Assembly: GCA_947466225.1 (NCBI GenBank)
Contig: CANIBL010000005.1
Location: 2,666 to 66,665 of the forward strand
Direction of reading: 5' to 3'
Length of the DNA: 64,000 bases
Origin: Deltaproteobacteria bacterium
Lineage (GTDB): Bacteria; Bdellovibrionota_B; Oligoflexia; Oligoflexales; Bog-1112
Made by a program: the position numbers and the translations under genes. The notes under the pieces were generated by a model. It did not search any database. It worked only from the letters and a program-made list of their open reading frames with translations, and was not told where the DNA came from. Positions 15,740 to 41,330 of this stretch are shown here, piece after piece (positions within the stretch are counted from its first letter, which is position 1; every line of letters begins with the position of its first letter).

Positions 15740-16885
15740 ATGGCAAATATCCTTATTTGGGTGTGGTTCATGCTGGGCTTTTTGATGAGCCCCTATGCAG
15801 AAGGTGCGCCCTATCAACGAGAATGTCGTGCTGCCCCCCAAAATCCATATGAAGAGAAGATGAAAGTCTGTTGCGAGTCAACCAATGAAATTTTCAGTTG
15901 GTCTGAAGGTAAGATTGTTGAACATGCGAAGCAGATCCAAGAGGAATATGCCCAAGTTCGACCCTTTACGACAGGAAAAGGTGGAGCTGCGGTGTACCAT
16001 GTAATCATCCAAAAGCCACCTTATACTCCCTATATACTCAAGGTATTTCCGGAAGCAAACGAATCAGCCTGGCGAGAAATATTTCATACTTGTTTGGTTC
16101 AAGTCTTTCGCGATAAGGCGCCCCAATTTATGCACCATCTTGGGAGTGGGATGGTGGGTAATTCCGATCCGTGGCGAAACATCAGTCCGTTGCTAAAACC
16201 CGCAAAGACAAGGGGGCTCCCCATGATGGTAGCGGAGTATATCGAAGGCACTCCGCTATTGAGCGTAGGGTCTTCCTCTGGAGAAGAAATGTTTGCTGCC
16301 TCTAAGGCTGTAGCGTTGCATCCTCGAGATATTAAATCCATTTTTTTCCAGCTACTCCATGCGATGTCATTGGCGCATGCAAAAGTGGGGTTGAAGCATT
16401 ACGATTTGCATCCAGGTAATGTTTTGATTACCGACCAAAAAATTGAGAAAGATGGATTCCCTGTATTTTCTCTTGAAACACAAGAGGGACGAAGAGAAAC
16501 GTTTACCGGGCAATTGCTGGGAACTCCTTTGATCAAAATCATTGATTTTGGCTTAGCGGAGTCTGTAGAGATGGAGCAAAGTCGGGTAGATCTTTCTCTT
16601 CGATGGACCACAGGTGTGCTTCGTGCCTTTGGGCAAAAAGAGAAGTCAACAGGCGAAAAAATTAAAGGACTCTTTAGCCCCCCTATTGCCCTATCAGTAG
16701 AAAATAAAGATTTGGCTTTTATTTTAACCATGCAAAACACCCTGGCTAAAATGGCGAAGGATCCTCTGCAAATGCCTCTGTTGCAATGCCAGGACTTTGC
16801 TACTTGCTTGGAAAATCCCTGGTTTTCTGAGGTGCGTACCTTAGAAATTGCGCCGCGAGGGTTTATCGTTCCGCCTCCAGAGTGA
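15740..16885 (+). CDS. Secreted protein-kinase-like protein
   Basis: Signal-like N-terminus MANILIWVWFMLGFLMSPYAEG. Kinase motifs GKGGAAVYHV..YILKVF, MMVAEYIEG, HYDLHPGNVLI (HxDxxxxN), IKIIDFGLAE (DFG). Confidence 0.8.
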   Translation: MANILIWVWFMLGFLMSPYAEGAPYQRECRAAPQNPYEEKMKVCCESTNEIFSWSEGKIVEHAKQIQEEYAQVRPFTTGKGGAAVYHVIIQKPPYTPYILKVFPEANESAWREIFHTCLVQVFRDKAPQFMHHLGSGMVGNSDPWRNISPLLKPAKTRGLPMMVAEYIEGTPLLSVGSSSGEEMFAASKAVALHPRDIKSIFFQLLHAMSLAHAKVGLKHYDLHPGNVLITDQKIEKDGFPVFSLETQEGRRETFTGQLLGTPLIKIIDFGLAESVEMEQSRVDLSLRWTTGVLRAFGQKEKSTGEKIKGLFSPPIALSVENKDLAFILTMQNTLAKMAKDPLQMPLLQCQDFATCLENPWFSEVRTLEIAPRGFIVPPPE

Positions 16886-33095: not shown

Positions 33096-34745
33096 CTACT
33101 TCTTTTCCACGCCCAACTTACTTCTCCGTTTGCGATGATGGCCCAAGGCAAACCGATGGGCCTCATCGCGTAAGTGCGTGCAGACTTGGTACATGCTGCT
33201 GCCCTTTTCCAGCGGGAGTGGTAAAGCATCTGGTGCAAGACAGATGCGCTCTTCTGTATACGAAAGGGTTTCGCTTGTTCCCTCTTGTTTCTGCAGCCGA
33301 CTTTTTGCCAAGCTGACGATGGGAATTTCGTTGCACCCCACATCAGCTCGCGCTTGCCAGGCTGCAGCAAGCTGTCCTTTTCCTCCATCTATGACCAAGA
33401 GGTCGGGTTTTCCTTCCGTTGGAATTGCCTGCAAGCGTCGCGTCACAATTTCATAGATACTGGCAAAGTCATCTTGGGTGCGCACTGTCTTGAGGTTATA
33501 GAGTCGGTATAACGATTTTTCTGGTTTTCCCTCTATAAAGCACACACAAGACGCTACGATTGCGGTATCTCGTAAATTAGAAATGTCGATGCATTCCATC
33601 CGACGAGGGAGAGTGGGTAGAGAAAAAGCCTGTTGAATTTGGGCTAAGACTTCTTCTGTCCTTTCGTTTTCGGCTGCCAGTTGGAGGCTGGCATGCTGGG
33701 CGTTTCGTTCACAGAGAGCCAGGATTTTTTTCTTTTCTCCTCGTTGGGGCACGGTAAGACGCAGGGTTGTGTTCCATAGCGTGAGGCAATGGGCTTGATC
33801 CGGTAGTGGCAGTGGTAATACTAACTCTACGGGAAGGGGATGATGTTCATAGTATTGGAGGAGAAACGCTTGCAACTCTTCAGCAGGCGTTCCAGTCGCA
33901 TGTTTCCATAGGAAGGAGAAGTGAGCTTGGATTTGGTGATTGCGAATACAGAGCAAGGAAAAGGCCAGTTGCCCTTCTGTTTCGTAAAAATTCACAGTAT
34001 CACAAGCAGCGACTGTGAAGTGGGTTACCGATTGCTGAGATTTGAGACTATCTAATGCAAGAAGTTGATCTCGGTAGAGAGCCGCTTGTTCATAGTCTTC
34101 TTTTCCAGAGGCTTCCAACATCTTCGCTTTGAGGGCGAGTTGAATCTGTTGGTTTTTGCCTTGAAGAAATTCCATGGCATGATGCACCATCTCCATATAC
34201 AAGGTGCGGTCTACCGGGAGGTGACACGGCGCTAGGCATTTCTTAATGGCATAGTAGTTACAAGGTCGTGTGACATTGGCAAATTCTCGTTCTGTACATC
34301 GAACCAGAGGAAAAACTTTGTACATAAGCTGTAAGGTTTTGCGCAGCTGAAAGCCGCTGGCGTAGGGGCCGAGGTAAACTGCACCGTCCTTTTTTACGCG
34401 GCGTACCAAGCGAAAGCGGGGCCATGGGTCATGCAAATTGATGCGTACAAGAGGGTATTCTTTGTCGTCACGCAAGAGAATGTTATAGAGGGGCTTATGC
34501 TGCTTGATGAACTCCCGCTCCAAGAGCAAGGCATCGATTTCCAATGGCACCAGTACCACTTCTACATCTGCGATTTGACGCACCAGGGTTTGAGTTTTTG
34601 GCGTTTGCCCTTTCTCCACAAAATAGGATGAGACTCGCGCTCGCAAGTTTCGTGCTTTGCCCACATAGAGAATCGTGCCAGATTCGTTTTTGAAAAGGTA
34701 TACGCCAGCAGATGTAGGCAGGGTATGAAGCGGAATGGGACTCAT
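33096..34745 (-). CDS. uvrC: Excinuclease ABC subunit C (short form)
   Basis: GIY-YIG GVYLFKNESGTILYVGKARNLRARVSSYF and a UvrBC-interaction region. The endonuclease region ends ..RDEAHRFALGHHRKRR; ATGA-type overlap with uvrB. Confidence 0.9.
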   Translation of the reverse strand: MSPIPLHTLPTSAGVYLFKNESGTILYVGKARNLRARVSSYFVEKGQTPKTQTLVRQIADVEVVLVPLEIDALLLEREFIKQHKPLYNILLRDDKEYPLVRINLHDPWPRFRLVRRVKKDGAVYLGPYASGFQLRKTLQLMYKVFPLVRCTEREFANVTRPCNYYAIKKCLAPCHLPVDRTLYMEMVHHAMEFLQGKNQQIQLALKAKMLEASGKEDYEQAALYRDQLLALDSLKSQQSVTHFTVAACDTVNFYETEGQLAFSLLCIRNHQIQAHFSFLWKHATGTPAEELQAFLLQYYEHHPLPVELVLPLPLPDQAHCLTLWNTTLRLTVPQRGEKKKILALCERNAQHASLQLAAENERTEEVLAQIQQAFSLPTLPRRMECIDISNLRDTAIVASCVCFIEGKPEKSLYRLYNLKTVRTQDDFASIYEIVTRRLQAIPTEGKPDLLVIDGGKGQLAAAWQARADVGCNEIPIVSLAKSRLQKQEGTSETLSYTEERICLAPDALPLPLEKGSSMYQVCTHLRDEAHRFALGHHRKRRSKLGVEKK

Positions 34746-36760
34746 GGCTTCTTCTCCAATTGGATCCCGCGTAGTTGACCCACTTCATTTCGTAGTTTGG
34801 CAGCTTGTTCAAAGTCCATGGTCAAAGCAGCACCTTGCATGAGTTTGGTTTTTTTCCGGATGAGCTTGTCCAGATCTTTCTGGGTATGAATCCCTATTTG
34901 GGCCAACTGCGCAGCATCCAGCTGTGGCGTGGAGGTTGTGTTTTCCTCTGATGCCAATCCATAGATTACTTTCAAATCCTTGGGGATGTCTTTCTGAATG
35001 GATTTAGGGGTAATTCCATGTTCTGCATTGTGCGCCAGTTGGATGTAGCGTCGACGTTCTGTTTCTTCTACAGCTTGGCGAATGCTGTTGGTAATTTCAT
35101 CCGCGTAGAGAATCACGCGAGAGTCTTTGTTTCGTGCAGCTCGGCCCACGGTTTGAATGATGGAGGTTTTAGAGCGTAAAAAGCCCTCTTTATCTGCATC
35201 CAGAATAGCTACCAAGGTAACCTCGGGGAGATCCAGTCCTTCTCGCAAGAGGTTGATGCCGATGAGCACATCAAAGGTTCCCATACGAAGTTCCCGTAAG
35301 AGTTGCGTGCGCTCTAGGGTGTCGATATCCGAATGGAGATAGCGAACCCGCAAGCCCTGCTCGCGATAGAACTCCGTGAGTTCCTCGGACATTTTCTTGG
35401 TCAAAGTGGTGAGCAATACTCGGCCGCCTGCAGCGATGGCACGCTGGCTTTCCAATAGCACATCTTGGATTTGATTGTGTGCGGGGTGGATTTCAATTTT
35501 GGGATCGATCAATCCTGTCGGGCGAATCACTTGCTCACTAAAGGATCCCTCTATCTCTTGCTCATAGGCGCCCGGCGTTGCGGAAACATGGAGCACCTGA
35601 TCCGTACGTGCCATAAATTCTTCGAAGGTTAAGGGACGGTTATCGAGTGCGGCCGGTAAGCGAAATCCGTACGCCACCAAATTTTCTTTTCTCGCGCGAT
35701 CCCCTCGGTACATACCGCGAATCTGAGGCACAGTGATATGACTCTCATCCAAAATTGTGAGAAAAGAGTCAGGAAAATAATCCAGCAAACATGCAGGTGG
35801 CTCTCCTGGCGCTTGGCCGGTGAGGTAGCGAGAGTAGTTTTCGATTCCTGGGCAGTAGCCGAGCTGTTCGAATAGCTCCAGATCTTCGAGGGTGCGTTGT
35901 TCGAGGCGAATGGCTTCCTTCTCTTTATGCAAGGCGTGTAACTCTCGTAACCGCAGGCCCAAATCATGGCGAATTTCTGTGAGGATCTCTTTTCGGTCGC
36001 TGCGTGGGGTAATGTAGTGGCTATTGGGAAAGAGGCAGACTTCGGAAATGGGCTGTACTTCTTTCCCGTCGGCTACGCATAACTTGTGCAAGCTTTCGAT
36101 TTCATCCCCAAAGAATCGCACGCGAATGCCAAATTCTTTATCATGGGCCGGCAGAATGTCGATGACATCACCACGCACGCGAAAGAATCCCCGTTCTAGG
36201 ACGCGATCATTGCGAGAATATTGGATGTCGATGAGGCGGCGTATCAGTTCTTCTCGCTCCATGGCCATGGGTGTTTTGAGAGAAAGCATCATCTTGGCGT
36301 AGGAGGTCGGAGATCCCAATCCATAGATGCAGCTTACGCTGGCTATGATGATGGTGTTGGGTTCCTCGACCAAATAGCGTGTAGATTCGTGGCGCATTTT
36401 GTCGATGTCTTCATTAATGGCGCTATCTTTGGCAATATAGGTATCGGAAGAGGGTAAATATGCTTCCGGTTGATAGTAGTCGTAATAACTCATAAAGAGG
36501 CCCACGTGGTCCTCCGGGAATAAGGATTTAAACTCGGTGTAGAGTTGTGCAGCCAGGGTTTTGTTGGGGGCAATGATCAGTGCAGGCTTTTGCATCGTAG
36601 CGATGACATGGGCCATGGTGAATGTCTTACCTGATCCAGTCACGCCGAGGAGCACATGTTGCTTTTTGCCTTGCTGGAAGGCTTCCAGAATGGAGGCGAT
36701 GGCTGTGGGTTGATCCCCTTCAGGGGTGAAGGGAGAGGTAAGTTTGAATGGTTGTTTCAT
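34742..36760 (-). CDS. uvrB: Excinuclease ABC subunit B
   Basis: GVTGSGKTFTMA (Walker A), DESH box, helicase motifs, C-terminal UVR domain (DFEQAAKLRNEV). Confidence 0.95.
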   Translation of the reverse strand: MKQPFKLTSPFTPEGDQPTAIASILEAFQQGKKQHVLLGVTGSGKTFTMAHVIATMQKPALIIAPNKTLAAQLYTEFKSLFPEDHVGLFMSYYDYYQPEAYLPSSDTYIAKDSAINEDIDKMRHESTRYLVEEPNTIIIASVSCIYGLGSPTSYAKMMLSLKTPMAMEREELIRRLIDIQYSRNDRVLERGFFRVRGDVIDILPAHDKEFGIRVRFFGDEIESLHKLCVADGKEVQPISEVCLFPNSHYITPRSDRKEILTEIRHDLGLRLRELHALHKEKEAIRLEQRTLEDLELFEQLGYCPGIENYSRYLTGQAPGEPPACLLDYFPDSFLTILDESHITVPQIRGMYRGDRARKENLVAYGFRLPAALDNRPLTFEEFMARTDQVLHVSATPGAYEQEIEGSFSEQVIRPTGLIDPKIEIHPAHNQIQDVLLESQRAIAAGGRVLLTTLTKKMSEELTEFYREQGLRVRYLHSDIDTLERTQLLRELRMGTFDVLIGINLLREGLDLPEVTLVAILDADKEGFLRSKTSIIQTVGRAARNKDSRVILYADEITNSIRQAVEETERRRYIQLAHNAEHGITPKSIQKDIPKDLKVIYGLASEENTTSTPQLDAAQLAQIGIHTQKDLDKLIRKKTKLMQGAALTMDFEQAAKLRNEVGQLRGIQLEKKP

Positions 36761-36790
36761 TTTATATTTCTCGTTTTATTTTTTTTTCAA

Positions 36791-37025
36791 GGGAACCAGC
36801 TGCGCAGTTTCCCCATACCCCTCCTTGCTGGGGACGGGAGAGAGAGGGTGATCAGAAAGATCGGATATAAGCCCAAGGCCGGCGCGATGATCGGATCCTC
36901 CCAACTCTCAAAATCGCAGGCAAAATTTCCGTCAAGGACCTACTACTCTTACTTGCGATTTGTGACCCGTCGGGGCCCACCGATCTGCTGCCCTTGGGCT
37001 TATATCCGATCTTTCTGATCACCCT
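36791..37025 (-). repeat. Twin element copy 1 (candidate structured RNA/leader, read on the minus strand toward uvrB)
   Basis: A perfect 34-bp helix (36845-36878 / 36992-37025) encloses a conserved interior with an inner AAATCGCA/TGCGATTT stem (36911-36918 / 36954-36961). The 53-nt tail (36791-36843) matches copy 2 at 52/53 positions. Confidence 0.75.
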
Positions 37026-37051
37026 CTTTTCCCTCCGAAGAGGAGAAGAAC

Positions 37052-37294
37052 ACGAGAGCTTGGGAAAAAATCCCAGATAAGACACGGGCAGCCAGACAGA
37101 AGGGGCCCAACGGGTCATAAATCGCAGCCATAGAATTGGCTGCCCATGACGTGAGTTCAATCTGCGATTTTGAGAGGTGGGAAGATTCTGTCTGAGCGCC
37201 GGCCGTGTCTCCTCATAGGATTGTTTCCCAAGCTCGCGTTTCTCTCCCGTCCCCAGCAAGGAGGGGTATGGAGAAACTGCGCAGCTGGTTCCCC
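37052..37294 (+). repeat. Twin element copy 2 (candidate structured RNA/leader, read on the plus strand toward actA)
   Basis: A helix of about 31 paired positions out of 36 (37052-37087 / 37203-37239) has a different sequence from copy 1. It has the same interior blocks, an inner stem at 37119-37127 / 37162-37170, and a tail at 37241-37294. Confidence 0.75.
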
Positions 37295-37451
37295 ATAATA
37301 AGAAGATAGCAAAAAAACCAACGCCACAGGCAACTTTACCCCAAACCACATTTTTAGATAGAGTTTCCCATTTTTCCATGTAAAATCCGAATTCTGTATC
37401 GAATGATGGGCGAAAGTGCCTCCCGGTGCACAAAGGGTTATTTCCTATCAT

Positions 37452-38096
37452 ATGCAAAAGGGTAAGCCGTTGAACAAGCAGCCACTCCTTCTTCTTTTGA
37501 TTCTGTTTTTTGCCGCAGGCTGTCAGTGTGAGAAGAAAAAAGAAGGGCTCATTCGCGGCTGGTGGATGTGGACGCCTGGTGGGCATTCAGATGATGGAAA
37601 CGACTCCAAACTGGTTTCTGGCTATCATCCCGATCAGCCCATTCCCTTTAGCCACAAATTACATGCCGGCGATCGGAAAATAGACTGTGAGTATTGCCAT
37701 AGCGCTGCGCGCCGTTCTACCGTTGCTGGGATTCCCTCCTTAAATACCTGCGTGGGATGTCACAAAATTGTGAATACTGATGCAGAGCCCATTAAAAAGC
37801 TCAACGAGCATTTCAAGAACAATGAGCCTTTCCCGTGGACCTTGGTGCACAAGTTGCCCGAGTATGTTCGCTTCTCTCATAAGGTACACGTCTTGGCCAA
37901 GGATGCACAGGGGCAATCTAGGCTGAAATGTCAGACGTGTCACGGGGACGTGGAAAAAATGACCACGGTGTCACAAGAAAAATCGCTTCTTATGGGTTGG
38001 TGTGTGGATTGTCATAGCACGATCAAAGAACCTGCCACTCCCTTTAAGAAGGCGACAACCTGGGCACCGATCACATGTAATACTTGCCACTATTAG
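37452..38096 (+). CDS. actA: Alternative Complex III subunit ActA (pentahaem cytochrome c)
   Basis: Five CxxCH sites (CEYCH, CVGCH, CQTCH, CVDCH, CNTCH). Start chosen at ATG 37452 (MQKGKPLNKQPLLLLLILFFAAGC). Confidence 0.85.
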   Translation: MQKGKPLNKQPLLLLLILFFAAGCQCEKKKEGLIRGWWMWTPGGHSDDGNDSKLVSGYHPDQPIPFSHKLHAGDRKIDCEYCHSAARRSTVAGIPSLNTCVGCHKIVNTDAEPIKKLNEHFKNNEPFPWTLVHKLPEYVRFSHKVHVLAKDAQGQSRLKCQTCHGDVEKMTTVSQEKSLLMGWCVDCHSTIKEPATPFKKATTWAPITCNTCHY

Positions 38097-38153: not shown

Positions 38154-41100
38154 GTGGGAACTCCAACCACGGACGAACTCGAGAAGCTCGAAAAACAATC
38201 CCTTGTCGAGGCGCCTCATGAAGATTTTGAGCGTCCCGCTGAGTCCTTTGTTCCGGGGCCATATTATGCTGCTGCAGAAGAAGTGCTTGCAGAGCTAGAG
38301 GAAGGCGTACCTGCCCATGTGGCAGGTGTAAAAGCTTCCAGTAAAGGCTTGGACTTCTCTGTAGATCGTCGAGATTTCATGCGTCTCTTCACTGTAGCCA
38401 CCGCAGCCACAGCTGCCGCCTGTGTGCGTCGTCCGGTGGAAAAAGCAGTGCCCTATGTGCATCAGCCTATCGATCAACTTCCTGGCGTTCCCACCTTTTA
38501 CTCCTCTACCTGCGGATCTTGTGCTGCGAGTTGCGGTATTGTGGTGAAAACCCGAGAGGGTCGCCCGATCAAACTCGAGGGCAACCCGGAGCATCCTGTG
38601 AATCAGGGTGCCTTGTGTGGATTGGGGCAAGCCCAGCTTCAAGCTTTGTATCATCCGGAGCGCCTCAAAGCGCCCATGCAGCGCCATGGTCAACGTCTGG
38701 ATCCCATCCAATGGGACGATGTGTACAATATTCTCGGAGAAGCGGTTAAGAAAACCCAGAAGATTGGGATTTTTACCGGTGGTACCACCGGCCATCGCCA
38801 TGAATTTTTCCGTGAAGCGCTCGAGCGCCTTGGCGCACCAAAGACCGCGCTGTATACTTGGGAGCCCAACTCTTTGTGGAGTTCCACTGCACGGGCTCAT
38901 GAGATCGCCTTTGGCAAAGCGGTAATTCCACGCGTGGATATAAAGCATGCGGATCTTCTCGTGGGTATCGGTAGCGATTGCCTCGAAGTGGGATTTTCAC
39001 CTGTGGCTGCCGCGAAAAGTTTGAGTGCATTTCGTGCATACTACAATGGGAAAACCGGGCGATTTGTTCAGTTTGAAACCAATCTTTCGATGACCGGCTC
39101 CAATGCAGACAAGCGTTGGGTGATTGCCCCCGGTAGTGAGATGCAAGTTGCGCTTCTTCTCGTGCGCGCTCTCTATGAAAATGCATCATCCAATAAAAGC
39201 GGCTTGGCGCGAAAAATTGCAGAGAGCTTGTTGCGAAAGCACCAAGCCGAGCTTGATCGCGCGTATGGGACTTTGAATATTCCAAAAGCCGAGTTTGAGG
39301 CTCTTGCTGCTGAAATGCTTCAAGGTGGCGCTGCGCTGTTAGTTGGTGGTTCTTCCATGTTCTCTCAAGACGCGACGAAGTTGCAACTTGTGGGGATTTT
39401 GGGGAACTTGTTGATTGGATCATACGAAAAATTTCTGTTTATCGATCGCGGTTGGATGAAGCCTCCTGTGATATCCGGCGATTTGGAACGATTCCTCGCA
39501 GATGCGCCGCAGCTCGATATCATTTTTGTTATCGACAGCGATCCGGTCTTTACCGTGCCTCCTTCTTGGGGACTTCGCGCGGCTCTGGAAAAAATTCCCA
39601 CCGTAGTATCCATTCAAGCCTTTCCTGCGGATACAGATCGTCTGGCGCATTTTGCGTTGCCAGCTCATCACGCGTTGGAGTCTTGGGGTGATGAGGAGCC
39701 GGTTGAGGGATTTTGGTCCATACGTCAGCCGGTCATTCGGCCTACCACAGATAGTCGACAAGCAGAAGATATGCTGCTGTGGATTTTGGCCACCAGCGGT
39801 AAAAATTTACCGTACGCAGATTACCATGCCTACTTATATAAAAAGTGGGAGGTCGTGCAACAGTTCACAGGCAATTTGTCTGTGGTCTACGACATGTTCT
39901 TTAAAGCGGTATTGAGACGCGGATTCATTGGCAAGCTTATGGTGCAATCCCTTTCTGCACAGCTAAAGAATTTTGCGGCTGAGTTGCAAGAACTGCGGGT
40001 AATGCCAACAGGATTACAGTTGTTATCCCCCTTGGATCATCGCTTCCATGATGGACGTGGCGCGCATTTGCCTGTGTTGCAAGAGACTGGCGATGCGGTC
40101 ACAACGGTGACGTGGGATACTTGGGCGGCAATCAATCCCAATACCATGACCAAGCTAGGACTAAAGCGCAACCAGCTCGTGGTGCTGTCGACAGCAGCCG
40201 GCAAACTTACGGTTCCCGTATATCCATTGCCTGGGTTGCACCCCGATGTCATCGTATGTCCCCGTGGAAACGGTCGCGATGATGAACGCAGTACCATCAG
40301 TTATAATGCAGGCTTAAATCCGTTGGTTCTATTTCCTAAGGCCCAGGATCCTTTAAGCAAGGAGCCTGTTACAGCTGGTGAAGCCGTACAGCTCACAGCT
40401 ACGGCGGAGTGGTTTCGATTGGCTGCCTTGCAGAAGCACCATGACATTGCCAATAGAAAAGACATTGTCAAAAAAATTGATCTGCCCTCATTGAAACATG
40501 CAAAGAAGAAAAATTTGGATCAAGTCCCCGATCTCTTTCCCAAGTTGGAGGAAAGCGAATATCGCTGGGGGATGGCCATCGATTTGGATAAGTGTACAGG
40601 TTGTGGTGCATGTGTTGCGGCTTGTTCCATCGAGAATAACGTACCCCAAGTGGGCCGTGAGCAGGTGATTCTGGGTCGGGAGATGACTTGGATTCGCATC
40701 GATCGCTATTTCTACGGGGATGTTAATTCTCCTGAGGTGAGTTTTCAGCCTGTCAATTGCCAGCATTGTAACCATGCGCCTTGTGAAGCTGTGTGTCCGG
40801 TTTTTGCCACGACCCACGATCCAGAGGGCCTCAATGCGATGACGTATAACCGATGTGTGGGGACGCGCTATTGCGCCAACGCATGTCCGTACAAGGTACG
40901 TCGGTTTAACTGGTGGACTCACAAATGGGGCGATATGGGCAAGCGTGCCCAGGATCGAAACCCTCGCGCGATGAACCCGGATGTCACGGTGCGAACCCGT
41001 GGGGTTATGGAAAAGTGCAGCTTGTGTGTGGGGCGTCTGCGAGATGCCAAGCACGTAGCCAAGGAAACCGGCCGTAAGATCCCAGATGGGGGCGTGCAGA

Positions 41101-41330
41101 CGGCATGTCAGCAAACCTGTCCATCCAATGCCATTGTCTTTGGGGATCTGCATGATACCGAGAGTCGGGTGAGCCGGGCTCGACAAGACCCGCGTGCATA
41201 CCTGATGTTGGGCGGAGATCCAGAGAATGGGCACTATGGGTTGAAAACTTTGCCAAATGTGAGCTACCTCTCAGAGGTGGTGCGCTACGGCTCTCATCAG
41301 CCAGAACATGGGCAACCTCATAACCAGTAG
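38154..41330 (+). CDS. actB: ACIII subunit ActB (molybdopterin-oxidoreductase-like + 4Fe-4S ferredoxin fusion)
   Basis: GTG start after AAAGGAG. Twin-arginine motif RRDFMRLF, N-terminal Cys cluster CGSCAASCG, C-terminal ferredoxin motifs CTGCGACVAAC, CQHCNHAPC, CVGTRYCANAC. Confidence 0.9.
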   Translation: MGTPTTDELEKLEKQSLVEAPHEDFERPAESFVPGPYYAAAEEVLAELEEGVPAHVAGVKASSKGLDFSVDRRDFMRLFTVATAATAAACVRRPVEKAVPYVHQPIDQLPGVPTFYSSTCGSCAASCGIVVKTREGRPIKLEGNPEHPVNQGALCGLGQAQLQALYHPERLKAPMQRHGQRLDPIQWDDVYNILGEAVKKTQKIGIFTGGTTGHRHEFFREALERLGAPKTALYTWEPNSLWSSTARAHEIAFGKAVIPRVDIKHADLLVGIGSDCLEVGFSPVAAAKSLSAFRAYYNGKTGRFVQFETNLSMTGSNADKRWVIAPGSEMQVALLLVRALYENASSNKSGLARKIAESLLRKHQAELDRAYGTLNIPKAEFEALAAEMLQGGAALLVGGSSMFSQDATKLQLVGILGNLLIGSYEKFLFIDRGWMKPPVISGDLERFLADAPQLDIIFVIDSDPVFTVPPSWGLRAALEKIPTVVSIQAFPADTDRLAHFALPAHHALESWGDEEPVEGFWSIRQPVIRPTTDSRQAEDMLLWILATSGKNLPYADYHAYLYKKWEVVQQFTGNLSVVYDMFFKAVLRRGFIGKLMVQSLSAQLKNFAAELQELRVMPTGLQLLSPLDHRFHDGRGAHLPVLQETGDAVTTVTWDTWAAINPNTMTKLGLKRNQLVVLSTAAGKLTVPVYPLPGLHPDVIVCPRGNGRDDERSTISYNAGLNPLVLFPKAQDPLSKEPVTAGEAVQLTATAEWFRLAALQKHHDIANRKDIVKKIDLPSLKHAKKKNLDQVPDLFPKLEESEYRWGMAIDLDKCTGCGACVAACSIENNVPQVGREQVILGREMTWIRIDRYFYGDVNSPEVSFQPVNCQHCNHAPCEAVCPVFATTHDPEGLNAMTYNRCVGTRYCANACPYKVRRFNWWTHKWGDMGKRAQDRNPRAMNPDVTVRTRGVMEKCSLCVGRLRDAKHVAKETGRKIPDGGVQTACQQTCPSNAIVFGDLHDTESRVSRARQDPRAYLMLGGDPENGHYGLKTLPNVSYLSEVVRYGSHQPEHGQPHNQ

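Follow-up and report, generated by a model that had tools for sequence, protein, structure and literature searches.

A candidate REP/REPIN/MITE-like composite palindromic repeat of nested rods and REP-like tails between uvrB and the alternative complex III operon

The intergenic region that separates uvrB from the operon for alternative complex III (ACIII) in a 64-kb stretch of contig CANIBL010000005.1 (Deltaproteobacteria bacterium, assembly GCA_947466225.1; hereafter the window) contains two mirrored modules, which an initial annotation had proposed to be an undescribed structured RNA or leader. Our preferred reading, held with no more than even confidence, is that positions 36791–37305 are a single member of a dispersed family of non-coding composite palindromes of the kind represented by repetitive extragenic palindromic (REP) sequences, REP doublets forming hairpins (REPINs) and miniature inverted-repeat transposable elements (MITEs). 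With the same reserve, the doublet is filed as a new variety of this kind and not as a proven member. Its ends resemble inverted REP units, and each of the two rods between them is predicted to consist of a closing helix free in sequence around a conserved asymmetric core. The doublet is absent from the orthologous spacer of one relative, lies elsewhere in a second and is flipped in a third, so that the evidence favours a foldback repeat over a leader RNA confined to this locus. Related loci, 427 kb in all, were fetched for these comparisons and carry L-numbers below.

Architecture of the doublet

Two diverged rod modules of ~185 nt each are mirror-arranged between inverted tails, giving a total of ~515 nt. 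The whole doublet (36780–37304, neither strand assigned) is bounded by a 64-nt inverted repeat that is 91% complementary according to the repeat finder (36780–36843 and 37241–37304). As first annotated, it comprises two collinear mirrored copies of one architecture, copy 1 running from 37027 to 36791 on the minus strand and copy 2 from 37052 to 37294 on the plus strand. The rod module of copy 1, recognised by folding and by a covariance model (197.8 bits), occupies 36843–37027, and its tail, the left terminal inverted repeat of the doublet with a REP-like motif, occupies 36791–36842. The rod module of copy 2 (37052–37239, 191.4 bits) and its tail (37240–37294), the right terminal inverted repeat, lie on the other side of a central spacer, TTTCCCTCCGAAGAGGAGAAGAAC (37028–37051), that is conserved in loci L094 and L095. 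The conserved motifs of the element occur at just these two places in the window, with none expected from shuffles.

Copy 1 has a closing helix (P1) of 36 uninterrupted base pairs, formed on the minus strand by a 5′ arm at 37027–36992 and a 3′ arm at 36878–36843; the repeat finder extends the arms to 36843–36883 and 36987–37027 (41 nt, 95%). Inside P1 lie the junction GGGCAGC/GCGCCGGCC, the helix P2 (GATCGG/CCGATC), the loops CGGGTCA and TTGAGAG, the helix P5 (AAATCGCA/TGCGATTT) and a variable apical stem-loop. Copy 2 follows the same plan, with an imperfect closing helix of ~30 pairs with bulges (arms 37052–37073 and 37218–37239, 22 nt, 91%) and a P2 of GACAGAA/TTCTGTC; the earlier claim that each copy has its own complementary closing helix therefore stands. 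In the tail of copy 1 the box GCAAGGAGGGG (36818–36828, minus strand) precedes the hairpin GGGGAAAC-TGCGCAGC-TGGTTCCC (36791–36816, minus strand), and an A-run adjoins the tail 30 nt ahead of the uvrB ATG. The tail of copy 2 carries the same box at 37256–37266 and its hairpin at 37267–37294, both on the plus strand. Several figures needed revision: the two tails match at 51/52 positions and not 52/53, the block after the inner stem at 29/41 ungapped and not 33/41, and the arms, described as barely alignable, are in fact ~60% identical (23/36 and 21/36).

Absence, relocation and inversion in relatives

The closest named matches of UvrB, ~60–63% identical, are proteins of metagenome-assembled genomes labelled Bdellovibrionota, Oligoflexales or Oligoflexus; nearer relatives have UvrB at 97%, 89% and 78%. 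In the 89% relative (L012) the divergent actA–uvrB synteny is kept, and the 268-nt spacer has no rods and no tails. This spacer instead contains an unrelated perfect hairpin of ~34 bp (L012:3854–3937, TCATCCCAAGGCTGCGCAGCAGCCGTATGGGATC ... GATCCCATACGGCTGCTGCGCAGCCTTGGGATGA), which has just the octamer CTGCGCAG and CCCAAGGC in common with the rods and tails; going by the two sequences, the uvrB–actA site may acquire palindromic elements repeatedly. A further relative (L093, ActA 85%) has a single homologous rod, which faces actA and is bracketed by two degenerate tails in inverted arrangement; the closing helix of this rod is yet another sequence. The absence from L012 and the single rod in L093 point to insertion or acquisition in a narrow lineage and not to a conserved leader.

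Using the translation of a spurious open reading frame (ORF) spanning the element as bait, we recovered a second complete doublet on a 762-nt contig (L095). On this contig a reverse-complemented tail leads into a rod like that of copy 1, and after the spacer come a rod like that of copy 2 and a second tail; the whole is collinear with window 36791–37305, at 82.6% over 523 nt. This doublet, 70 nt upstream of a tRNA-Ala(GGC) gene, has flanks unrelated to uvrB or actA, and the unit bounded by tails therefore occurs in two contexts or more. Mobile DNA often lands at tRNA genes. A TTGACA-containing stretch (L095:37–112) lies between this doublet and the tRNA gene. With the element missing from the L012 spacer and a doublet beside tRNA-Ala in L095, a leader or RNA tied to uvrB–actA is not supported.

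The close relative L094 (DNA identity 95.7% in uvrB and 93.3% in actAB) has the doublet at uvrB–actA with its interior inverted: window 36791–37306 aligns to L094 2842–2319 in reverse at 86.8%, against ~71% when aligned collinearly, while the flanks are collinear at 93–96%. The two halves are old paralogues, ~71% identical, with orthologous halves 83–87% identical. Copy 1 faces actA in L094, and a copy-1-like rod lies on the uvrB side in L011 (8.4% uvrB divergence), the orientation seen in the window. Among these strains the window is nearest to L094 (4.3% uvrB divergence) yet shares its orientation with L011, and at least one inversion therefore took place within a narrow clade. The tails of the window are homogenised (51/52) and those of L094 differ in their inner halves; recombination with conversion between tails would fit the homogenisation. 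The Logan contigs of the species (L001, L011, L089–L092) all end inside the tail, at a 25-nt exact inverted repeat (GGGGAAACTGCGCAGCTGGTTCCCC), so that these assemblies lack the interior of the doublet. Since k-mer assemblers break at such repeats anyway, these contig ends say nothing about switching.

The tail as a dispersed REP-like unit

The tail, treated originally as a mere part of each copy, proved to be a separate dispersed REP-like repeat. A scan of metagenomes with the 20-mer GGAACCAGCTGCGCAGTTTC matched 71 loci, many of them from a lake sample that also contains the 78%-UvrB relative, and yielded 44 distinct full tails on contigs of related bacteria; the tail is accordingly a short extragenic palindrome repeated at many sites, as REPs are. 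All 44 have the form GCAAGGAGG(G)G, 2–4 nt, GGGGAAAC-TGCGCAGC-TGGTTCCCC and an A-rich run, a unit of ~45–53 nt in which the GCAAGGAGG box is followed by a hairpin with loop AAACTGCGCAGCTGGTT and a variable, covarying stem. The unit is sharply bounded on its left, and the loop is invariant as far as the search pattern could detect. Outer stem types include TTTGGGG/CCCCAAA, TCTGGGG/CCCCAGA, GTGGGG/CCCCAC and CTCGAGGGGG/CCCCCTCGA, and the stem extension covaries, with a mean of 5.0 contiguous pairs versus 3.15 for shuffled partners (maximum 3.68). Tails sit between housekeeping genes without orientation preference (20 face a start, 18 abut a convergent stop), those beside convergent stops often lying directly after the terminator of that gene. 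When the rods were compared with the 71 tail loci by BLASTN, nothing emerged beyond L011, and it took the covariance model described below to find L093 and L066. A literature search for the tail sequence found no paper.

Three simpler explanations of the tail were rejected. First, it is not a leader or promoter, as gene starts and convergent ends are faced about equally often. Second, it is not an intrinsic terminator, as A-runs and not T-runs follow the hairpin, and on the opposite strand the T-run precedes it. Third, a mini-ORF for a short peptide (AAGGAGG-GGT-ATG GGG AAA CTG CGC AGC TGG TTC CC) was discarded because its NTG lies within the covarying stem, some copies have TAG, and the frame differs in tails of the L066 type.

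Several observations accompany the tails. One locus (L032:1282–1390) has a minimal, rodless head-to-head doublet, a reverse-complemented tail, ~20–50 nt and a tail, which at ~100 nt is REPIN-sized. Many tails are preceded by one to three tandem partial copies of their 5′ half (e.g. GCAAGGAGGGGTTTGGGGAACATG, twice), and others are followed by a partial copy of the 3′ half (GCGCAGCTGGTTCCCCA..); such partial copies stand beside the tail match in L018, L025, L029, L033, L045, L051, L063, L074 and L075 and resemble traces left by recombination or slippage at the loop. A short GC-rich hairpin often comes after the A-run (L066, L078, L068, L070, L055, L042, L041, L030), reading on the other strand as the intrinsic terminator of the convergent gene (hairpin plus T-run). 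Tails seem to sit at, or insert beside, A/T-runs. A cyclic di-GMP-I riboswitch ~480 nt from one tail match (L076:1304–1423, 67.7 bits, E = 3.6e-11) is incidental and lies on an unrelated, high-GC contig. In other metagenomes the 20-mer occurs without the GCAAGGAGG box in a third conserved non-coding motif (..ACCGTCAAGTCRCTACTGTTGTTATGGAAACTGCGCAGCTGGTTCCAAGCCAATTTAAAAACTTT; L031, L043, L050, L053, L057, L065, L067, L069, L072, L073, L077, L079, L080, L083 and L085), which had no Rfam match in the four loci tested.

Fold and covariation of the rods

Both copies fold as rods, copy 1 at −124.1 kcal/mol (z = −8.85, 0/200 shuffles as good) and copy 2 at −108.2 kcal/mol (z = −5.85), bearing out the structured fold that had been annotated. 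When four copies are aligned, 94.6% of cells are paired and 19/60 pairs have changed on both sides, a count that 0/500 shuffles reached and for which slid controls gave 0–5. Palindromic DNA repeats give a like compensatory pattern, so this covariation does not discriminate RNA from DNA. P2 is a separate case. It covaries through four sequence types (GATCGG/CCGATC, GACAGA/TCTGTC, GaTTGG/CCAAaC and GcTTGGG/CCCAAaC), yet it is flanked by loops that stayed asymmetric in every lineage, and arm-to-arm correction therefore cannot account for it. As far as sequence can tell, P2 covariation argues for selection on a folded single strand, which may be RNA or single-stranded DNA (ssDNA). The conserved asymmetric interior is real: the 5′ GGGCAGC, P2, GGCC..CGGGTC, the 3′ GAGAG and GCGCCGGCC are kept in all lineages.

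The initial annotation took a conserved interior within a diverged, self-complementary helix as the signature of selection on RNA or ssDNA structure. P2 lends this claim support, but the pattern by itself is not indicative of RNA, because compensatory changes across hairpin arms have been described for REPINs, which are mobile DNA (PMC3116915). A caution follows for similar loci, where copy-specific closing helices around a conserved interior are insufficient for calling an RNA.

Rates and mode of sequence change

We compared substitution in one strain pair, the window and L094, between which local divergence is heterogeneous. Differences at fourfold sites amount to 46/303 in uvrB, 113/480 in actB and 8/88 in actA; in copy 1 they amount to 3/81 in the core, 0/53 in the tail, ~18% in the closing helix P1 and ~30% in the apical loop. 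We read the core and tail as being under purifying selection, while the closing helix and apical loop of copy 1 appear to change at about the synonymous rate, with the pairing of the helix kept. In P1 there are six compensated pairs, one G·U pair and no broken pair relative to L094, and nine compensated pairs relative to L095. Four of the 14 double changes are transversion pairs, for which no wobble intermediate is possible. Four strains have four closing-helix sequences, and the three with both arms known (window, L094 and L095) are all perfect. Copy-2 orthologues differ in this respect, with a single compensated pair beside several that are broken or changed on one side only. The numbers are small, and from them we infer that the perfect copy-1 arms would arise more easily by correction of one DNA arm against the other than by slow RNA compensation.

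Distant homologues and a cousin family

A covariance model was built from four rods and contained no tail information. Over the 427 kb it found two matches beyond the known copies, the rod of L093 (43 bits, E = 3e-6) and one in L066 (33.5 bits, E = 2e-4; GC 0.67). The L066 rod lies ~30 nt upstream of a tail in equal orientation. As the model lacked tail information, we estimate the chance of this adjacency at ~0.3%, and homology is based on the match, the conserved motifs and the tail adjacency together. Two other loci from the same metagenome (L068 and L070) have the 3′ half of the rod and the tail as in L066 with different downstream flanks, which places rod plus tail at at least three loci in a distant, high-GC organism. 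For a plain MITE, copies elsewhere would be expected, and they were found (L095, at least three loci of the distant organism, and the dispersed tails), but near-identity of copies was not seen in this lineage and there was no target-site duplication.

A second family shares the layout of rod plus tail, with minus-strand features at L019:417–622, L039:~1227–1500 and L064:~447–700. It has a closing helix (in L019 CTGCCCTAATCA/TGATTAGGGCAG), a core, GGCAAGGAGGCGGG and a hairpin, GGGGGAAACTGCGCAGCTGGTTCC; the core is built of hairpins whose 9-bp stems covary and whose loops read AGGAG, AGGAC or CGGAC. Positions 506–572 of L019 score 42.0 bits against the Rfam family TwoAYGGAY (RF01731), below its gathering score of 43.

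Among genomes of GTDB species the core pattern TGCGATTTTGAGAGNTGGGA gave only chance matches of 20–23 nt (Pseudanabaena, Virgibacillus and others), and viral contigs, plasmids and phages gave no match to the element.

Neighbouring genes and spacers

Divergent genes flank the doublet, uvrB/uvrC on one side and the ACIII operon on the other. Outside the element, uvrB (34742–36760, minus strand) has its ATG 30 nt from the copy-1 tail, so that its transcript probably begins in or crosses the element; judging from this spacing, some transcription of copy 1 is likely under every reading. The first ACIII gene encodes a multihaem cytochrome (actA), with ATG 37452 as its likeliest start, followed by ActB at 38154–41330. 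Exact look-ups of two candidate starts of the window ActA, and of P0241 and P0244, returned no record. The spacer beside actA (37306–37451, plus strand) is also outside the element and is conserved, with 0 differences in 146 nt relative to L094 while fourfold sites differ by 9–23%; it is probably an ACIII promoter or leader, or else a recent recombination tract. It is recognisable in L093 and in the element-free L012 (TTTACCCCAAA..TTTTAGATAGAGTTTCCC..TGTAAAATCCGAA), and conservation of ~100 nt beside actA in L012 places the ACIII promoter region outside the element.

Elsewhere in the window the repeat finder reports inverted repeats at 61281–61394 (19 nt, 89%) and 16490–16602 (18 nt, 83%), and no others of at least 18 nt within 600 nt.

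A proposed foldback element and its difficulties

We postulate that the element is spreading, or has spread in the past, in the form of DNA by way of a folded single-stranded intermediate. An enzyme acting in trans, resembling an HUH transposase or a REP-associated tyrosine transposase (RAYT) or of another kind, would read shape and conserved loops, and pairing would then matter more than stem sequence. The perfect arms may also be kept identical by arm-to-arm correction, and recombination between the 64-nt inverted tails could produce the flip. Effects on uvrB or ACIII expression, if any, would be a by-product of the landing place. Were this to hold, the doublet would found a new and unusually elaborate REPIN/MITE-like foldback family in a poorly studied lineage, and would offer a natural case of a stem that drifts neutrally with perfect pairing beside a constrained core.

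A number of findings weigh against this reading. With 515 nt and nested rods, the doublet greatly exceeds described REPINs (~70–110 nt) in size and elaboration, and its interior is better conserved than its stems, the reverse of a classical MITE. The covariation of P2 between asymmetric loops would fit RNA equally well, and the probable start or passage of the uvrB transcript in the element is a further difficulty. The 64-kb window contains only two tails and two rods. No transposase, RAYT, Y1 enzyme or recombinase was found among 34 ORFs of the window, among 131 situated no more than 2.5 kb from a tail or among 20 immediately beside one, nor any enrichment of transposase or recombinase genes near tails. 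The annotated lack of a transposase, reverse transcriptase or integrase nearby thus holds for the window ORFs tested, where the neighbours are uvrB/uvrC and ACIII genes and no reverse transcriptase domain was detected. Target-site duplications were not seen, only A-rich sequence outward of each tail: neither the window flanks (TTTTTTCAA|GGGAACC ... GGTTCCCC|ATAATAAG) nor those of L095 (GCTACT|GGGG ... CCCC|TATAAAAAG) form a direct repeat. Lastly, no clean empty site was recovered, and no autonomous transposase-encoding relative was found in the limited search space of the 427 kb, plasmids, phages and viral contigs.

Alternative explanations

It is possible, though doubtful, that the element is a structured non-coding RNA, with transcription of each rod and its tail running outward from the centre and yielding either an independent molecule or a 5′ leader for uvrB or actA. 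Selection on RNA folding would then keep the closing helix, the internal loops and the tail hairpin (with an exposed AAGGAGG) would bind a protein or the ribosome, and the dispersal would be that of a multi-copy RNA gene family or of a mobile-element RNA like the omega and bridge RNAs. Such an RNA would agree with the strong covariation of P1 and P2, with P2 pairing being kept even in the distant L093 and L066, and with a core and tail 4–5 times more conserved than fourfold sites. The orientation of rod relative to tail is constant in 8/8 copies, the forward strand is the better fold in 4/6, the stretch between tail and uvrB ATG leaves no room for a promoter, and the cousin family has the same layout with a core just short of the TwoAYGGAY gathering score. 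However, neither a sigma-70-like promoter nor an intrinsic terminator was recognised on either strand of 36600–37600, A-runs and not U-runs come after the tail hairpin, and G·U counts are without strand signal (27 on the forward strand, 29 on the reverse), so that they assign no strand. A stem changing at the neutral rate with transversion double changes, as in copy 1, is unusual for RNA, and the changes in copy-2 orthologues are mostly uncompensated. The element-free L012 spacer and the tails' indifference to gene orientation argue that a leader role is not general. As annotated, no known RNA family is present: Rfam 15, whose families include 6S, Y RNA, HEARO/omega RNA and riboswitches, gave 0 matches at gathering score in the whole window, and 36300–37800 searched at E ≤ 10 gave at best 18 bits (E = 2.6) to eukaryotic families, none credible.

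A broader proposal, which we think unlikely, is that rod plus tail belongs to a kind of functional structured nucleic acid, either RNA or ssDNA, that has not been described before. Its 3′ module, made up of the GCAAGGAGG box and a hairpin whose loop AAACUGCGCAGCUGGUU is invariant, would stay constant, while the helix-closed core joined to it could be exchanged; the cores seen so far would be the rod described here and the TwoAYGGAY-like hairpins of L019, L039 and L064. The 3′ module would be common to unrelated bacteria and would serve as the handle for a protein partner, and at uvrB–actA two modules, set between an operon for DNA repair and one for respiration, would make up a cassette able to invert recurrently. 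If so, the shared module would point to an RNA- or ssDNA-binding system across phyla, and the uvrB/ACIII flip would be a new kind of invertible element.

We consider it quite improbable that the doublet is an inverton, that is, that the segment between the 64-nt inverted tails flips reversibly in populations, the two paralogous halves changing places with respect to uvrBC and the ACIII operon and the expression of both being altered as a result, with the tail core GGGGAAAC-N10-GTTCCCC as the putative site of a recombinase encoded elsewhere. Both orientations do occur in close strains, with the opposite pair being the closest; the homogenised window tails and differing L094 inner halves are what recombination with conversion would be expected to leave, the tail looks like the core site of a recombinase in that its inverted arms enclose an asymmetric spacer, and short-read contigs break exactly at the 25-nt repeat. 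The orientations come from different strains and not from one sample, however, and a 64-nt inverted repeat can invert through ordinary homologous recombination, as could reinsertion in the opposite orientation give the same outcome; contig breaks are expected of k-mer assemblers regardless. The window has no recombinase, no promoter was recognised inside the segment, its pseudo-symmetric interior makes a regulatory effect of the flip not evident, and most tails elsewhere are single and not inverted pairs.

Very unlikely, finally, is a deletion derivative of a larger transposon, with the tails as terminal inverted repeats, copies 1 and 2 as left and right subterminal regions with putative transposase-binding sites and the 24-nt spacer marking a lost coding part: the doublet does move as a unit with a tail at each end, its halves are old paralogues and the spacer is conserved, but no ORF lies between rods or tails in the 427 kb, plasmids, phages and viral contigs are without matches, singlets of rod plus tail (L066) and of tail outnumber doublets, and no target-site duplication was seen.

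Comparison with known systems

Retron non-coding RNAs are set apart by an adjacent reverse transcriptase gene, which is lacking here among the window ORFs tested. The cousin family resembles TwoAYGGAY RNA in its closing helix, core and GCAAGGAGG-hairpin, in contrast to the window rods, which match neither RF01731 nor any other Rfam family. Integron attC sites and the ends of IS200/IS605 elements combine a conserved shape and a few unpaired or loop bases with free stem sequence. This is a resemblance only, as no integrase, TnpA or cassette array occurs here; attC moreover conserves bases at its outer ends and varies in the centre, the opposite of our element. Invertons are alike in that inverted repeats enclose a segment of ~400 nt, that close relatives have it in either orientation and that divergent operons lie on its two sides. 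Unlike them, the doublet has no nearby recombinase, no recognisable promoter and a pseudo-symmetric interior, and its orientations were seen in different strains.

Classical MITEs have conserved terminal repeats and target-site duplications. Those that fold as hairpins (Correia, ERIC/IRU and RUP) are like the doublet in being non-autonomous and intergenic with terminal inverted repeats, in their presence or absence between relatives, and in inserting beside genes, where they are often co-transcribed. The doublet's conserved terminal inverted repeats are its outer tails and not the closing helices of the rods, which vary freely around a conserved interior; neither a duplication nor an autonomous element with a parent transposase was found.

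REP/REPIN systems typically include a cognate RAYT, a Y1 HUH transposase, flanked by REPs, and no RAYT was found in the sequence searched. The doublet differs further in its size (~515 versus ~70–110 nt), in a 'spacer' built of two nested rods, both of which have a closing helix of their own and a conserved asymmetric core, and in the additional conserved GCAAGGAGG box of the tail. REPINs are inverted REP doublets with a spacer, in whose hairpins compensatory changes are common, and REP singlets are regarded as REPIN remnants (PMC3116915). As in the REP/REPIN–RAYT system of Bertels and Rainey (2011, PMC3116915), a short palindrome is dispersed extragenically with singlets common, non-coding copies lie among housekeeping genes, hairpin changes are compensatory, and the functional unit is an inverted doublet with spacer that would form a long hairpin in ssDNA or mRNA. 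Inverted doublets are full in the window, L094 and L095, minimal in L032 and reduced to one rod in L093. With its dispersed singlets, inverted doublets, compensated hairpin interior, housekeeping neighbours and presence or absence between relatives, the element matches the REPIN concept.

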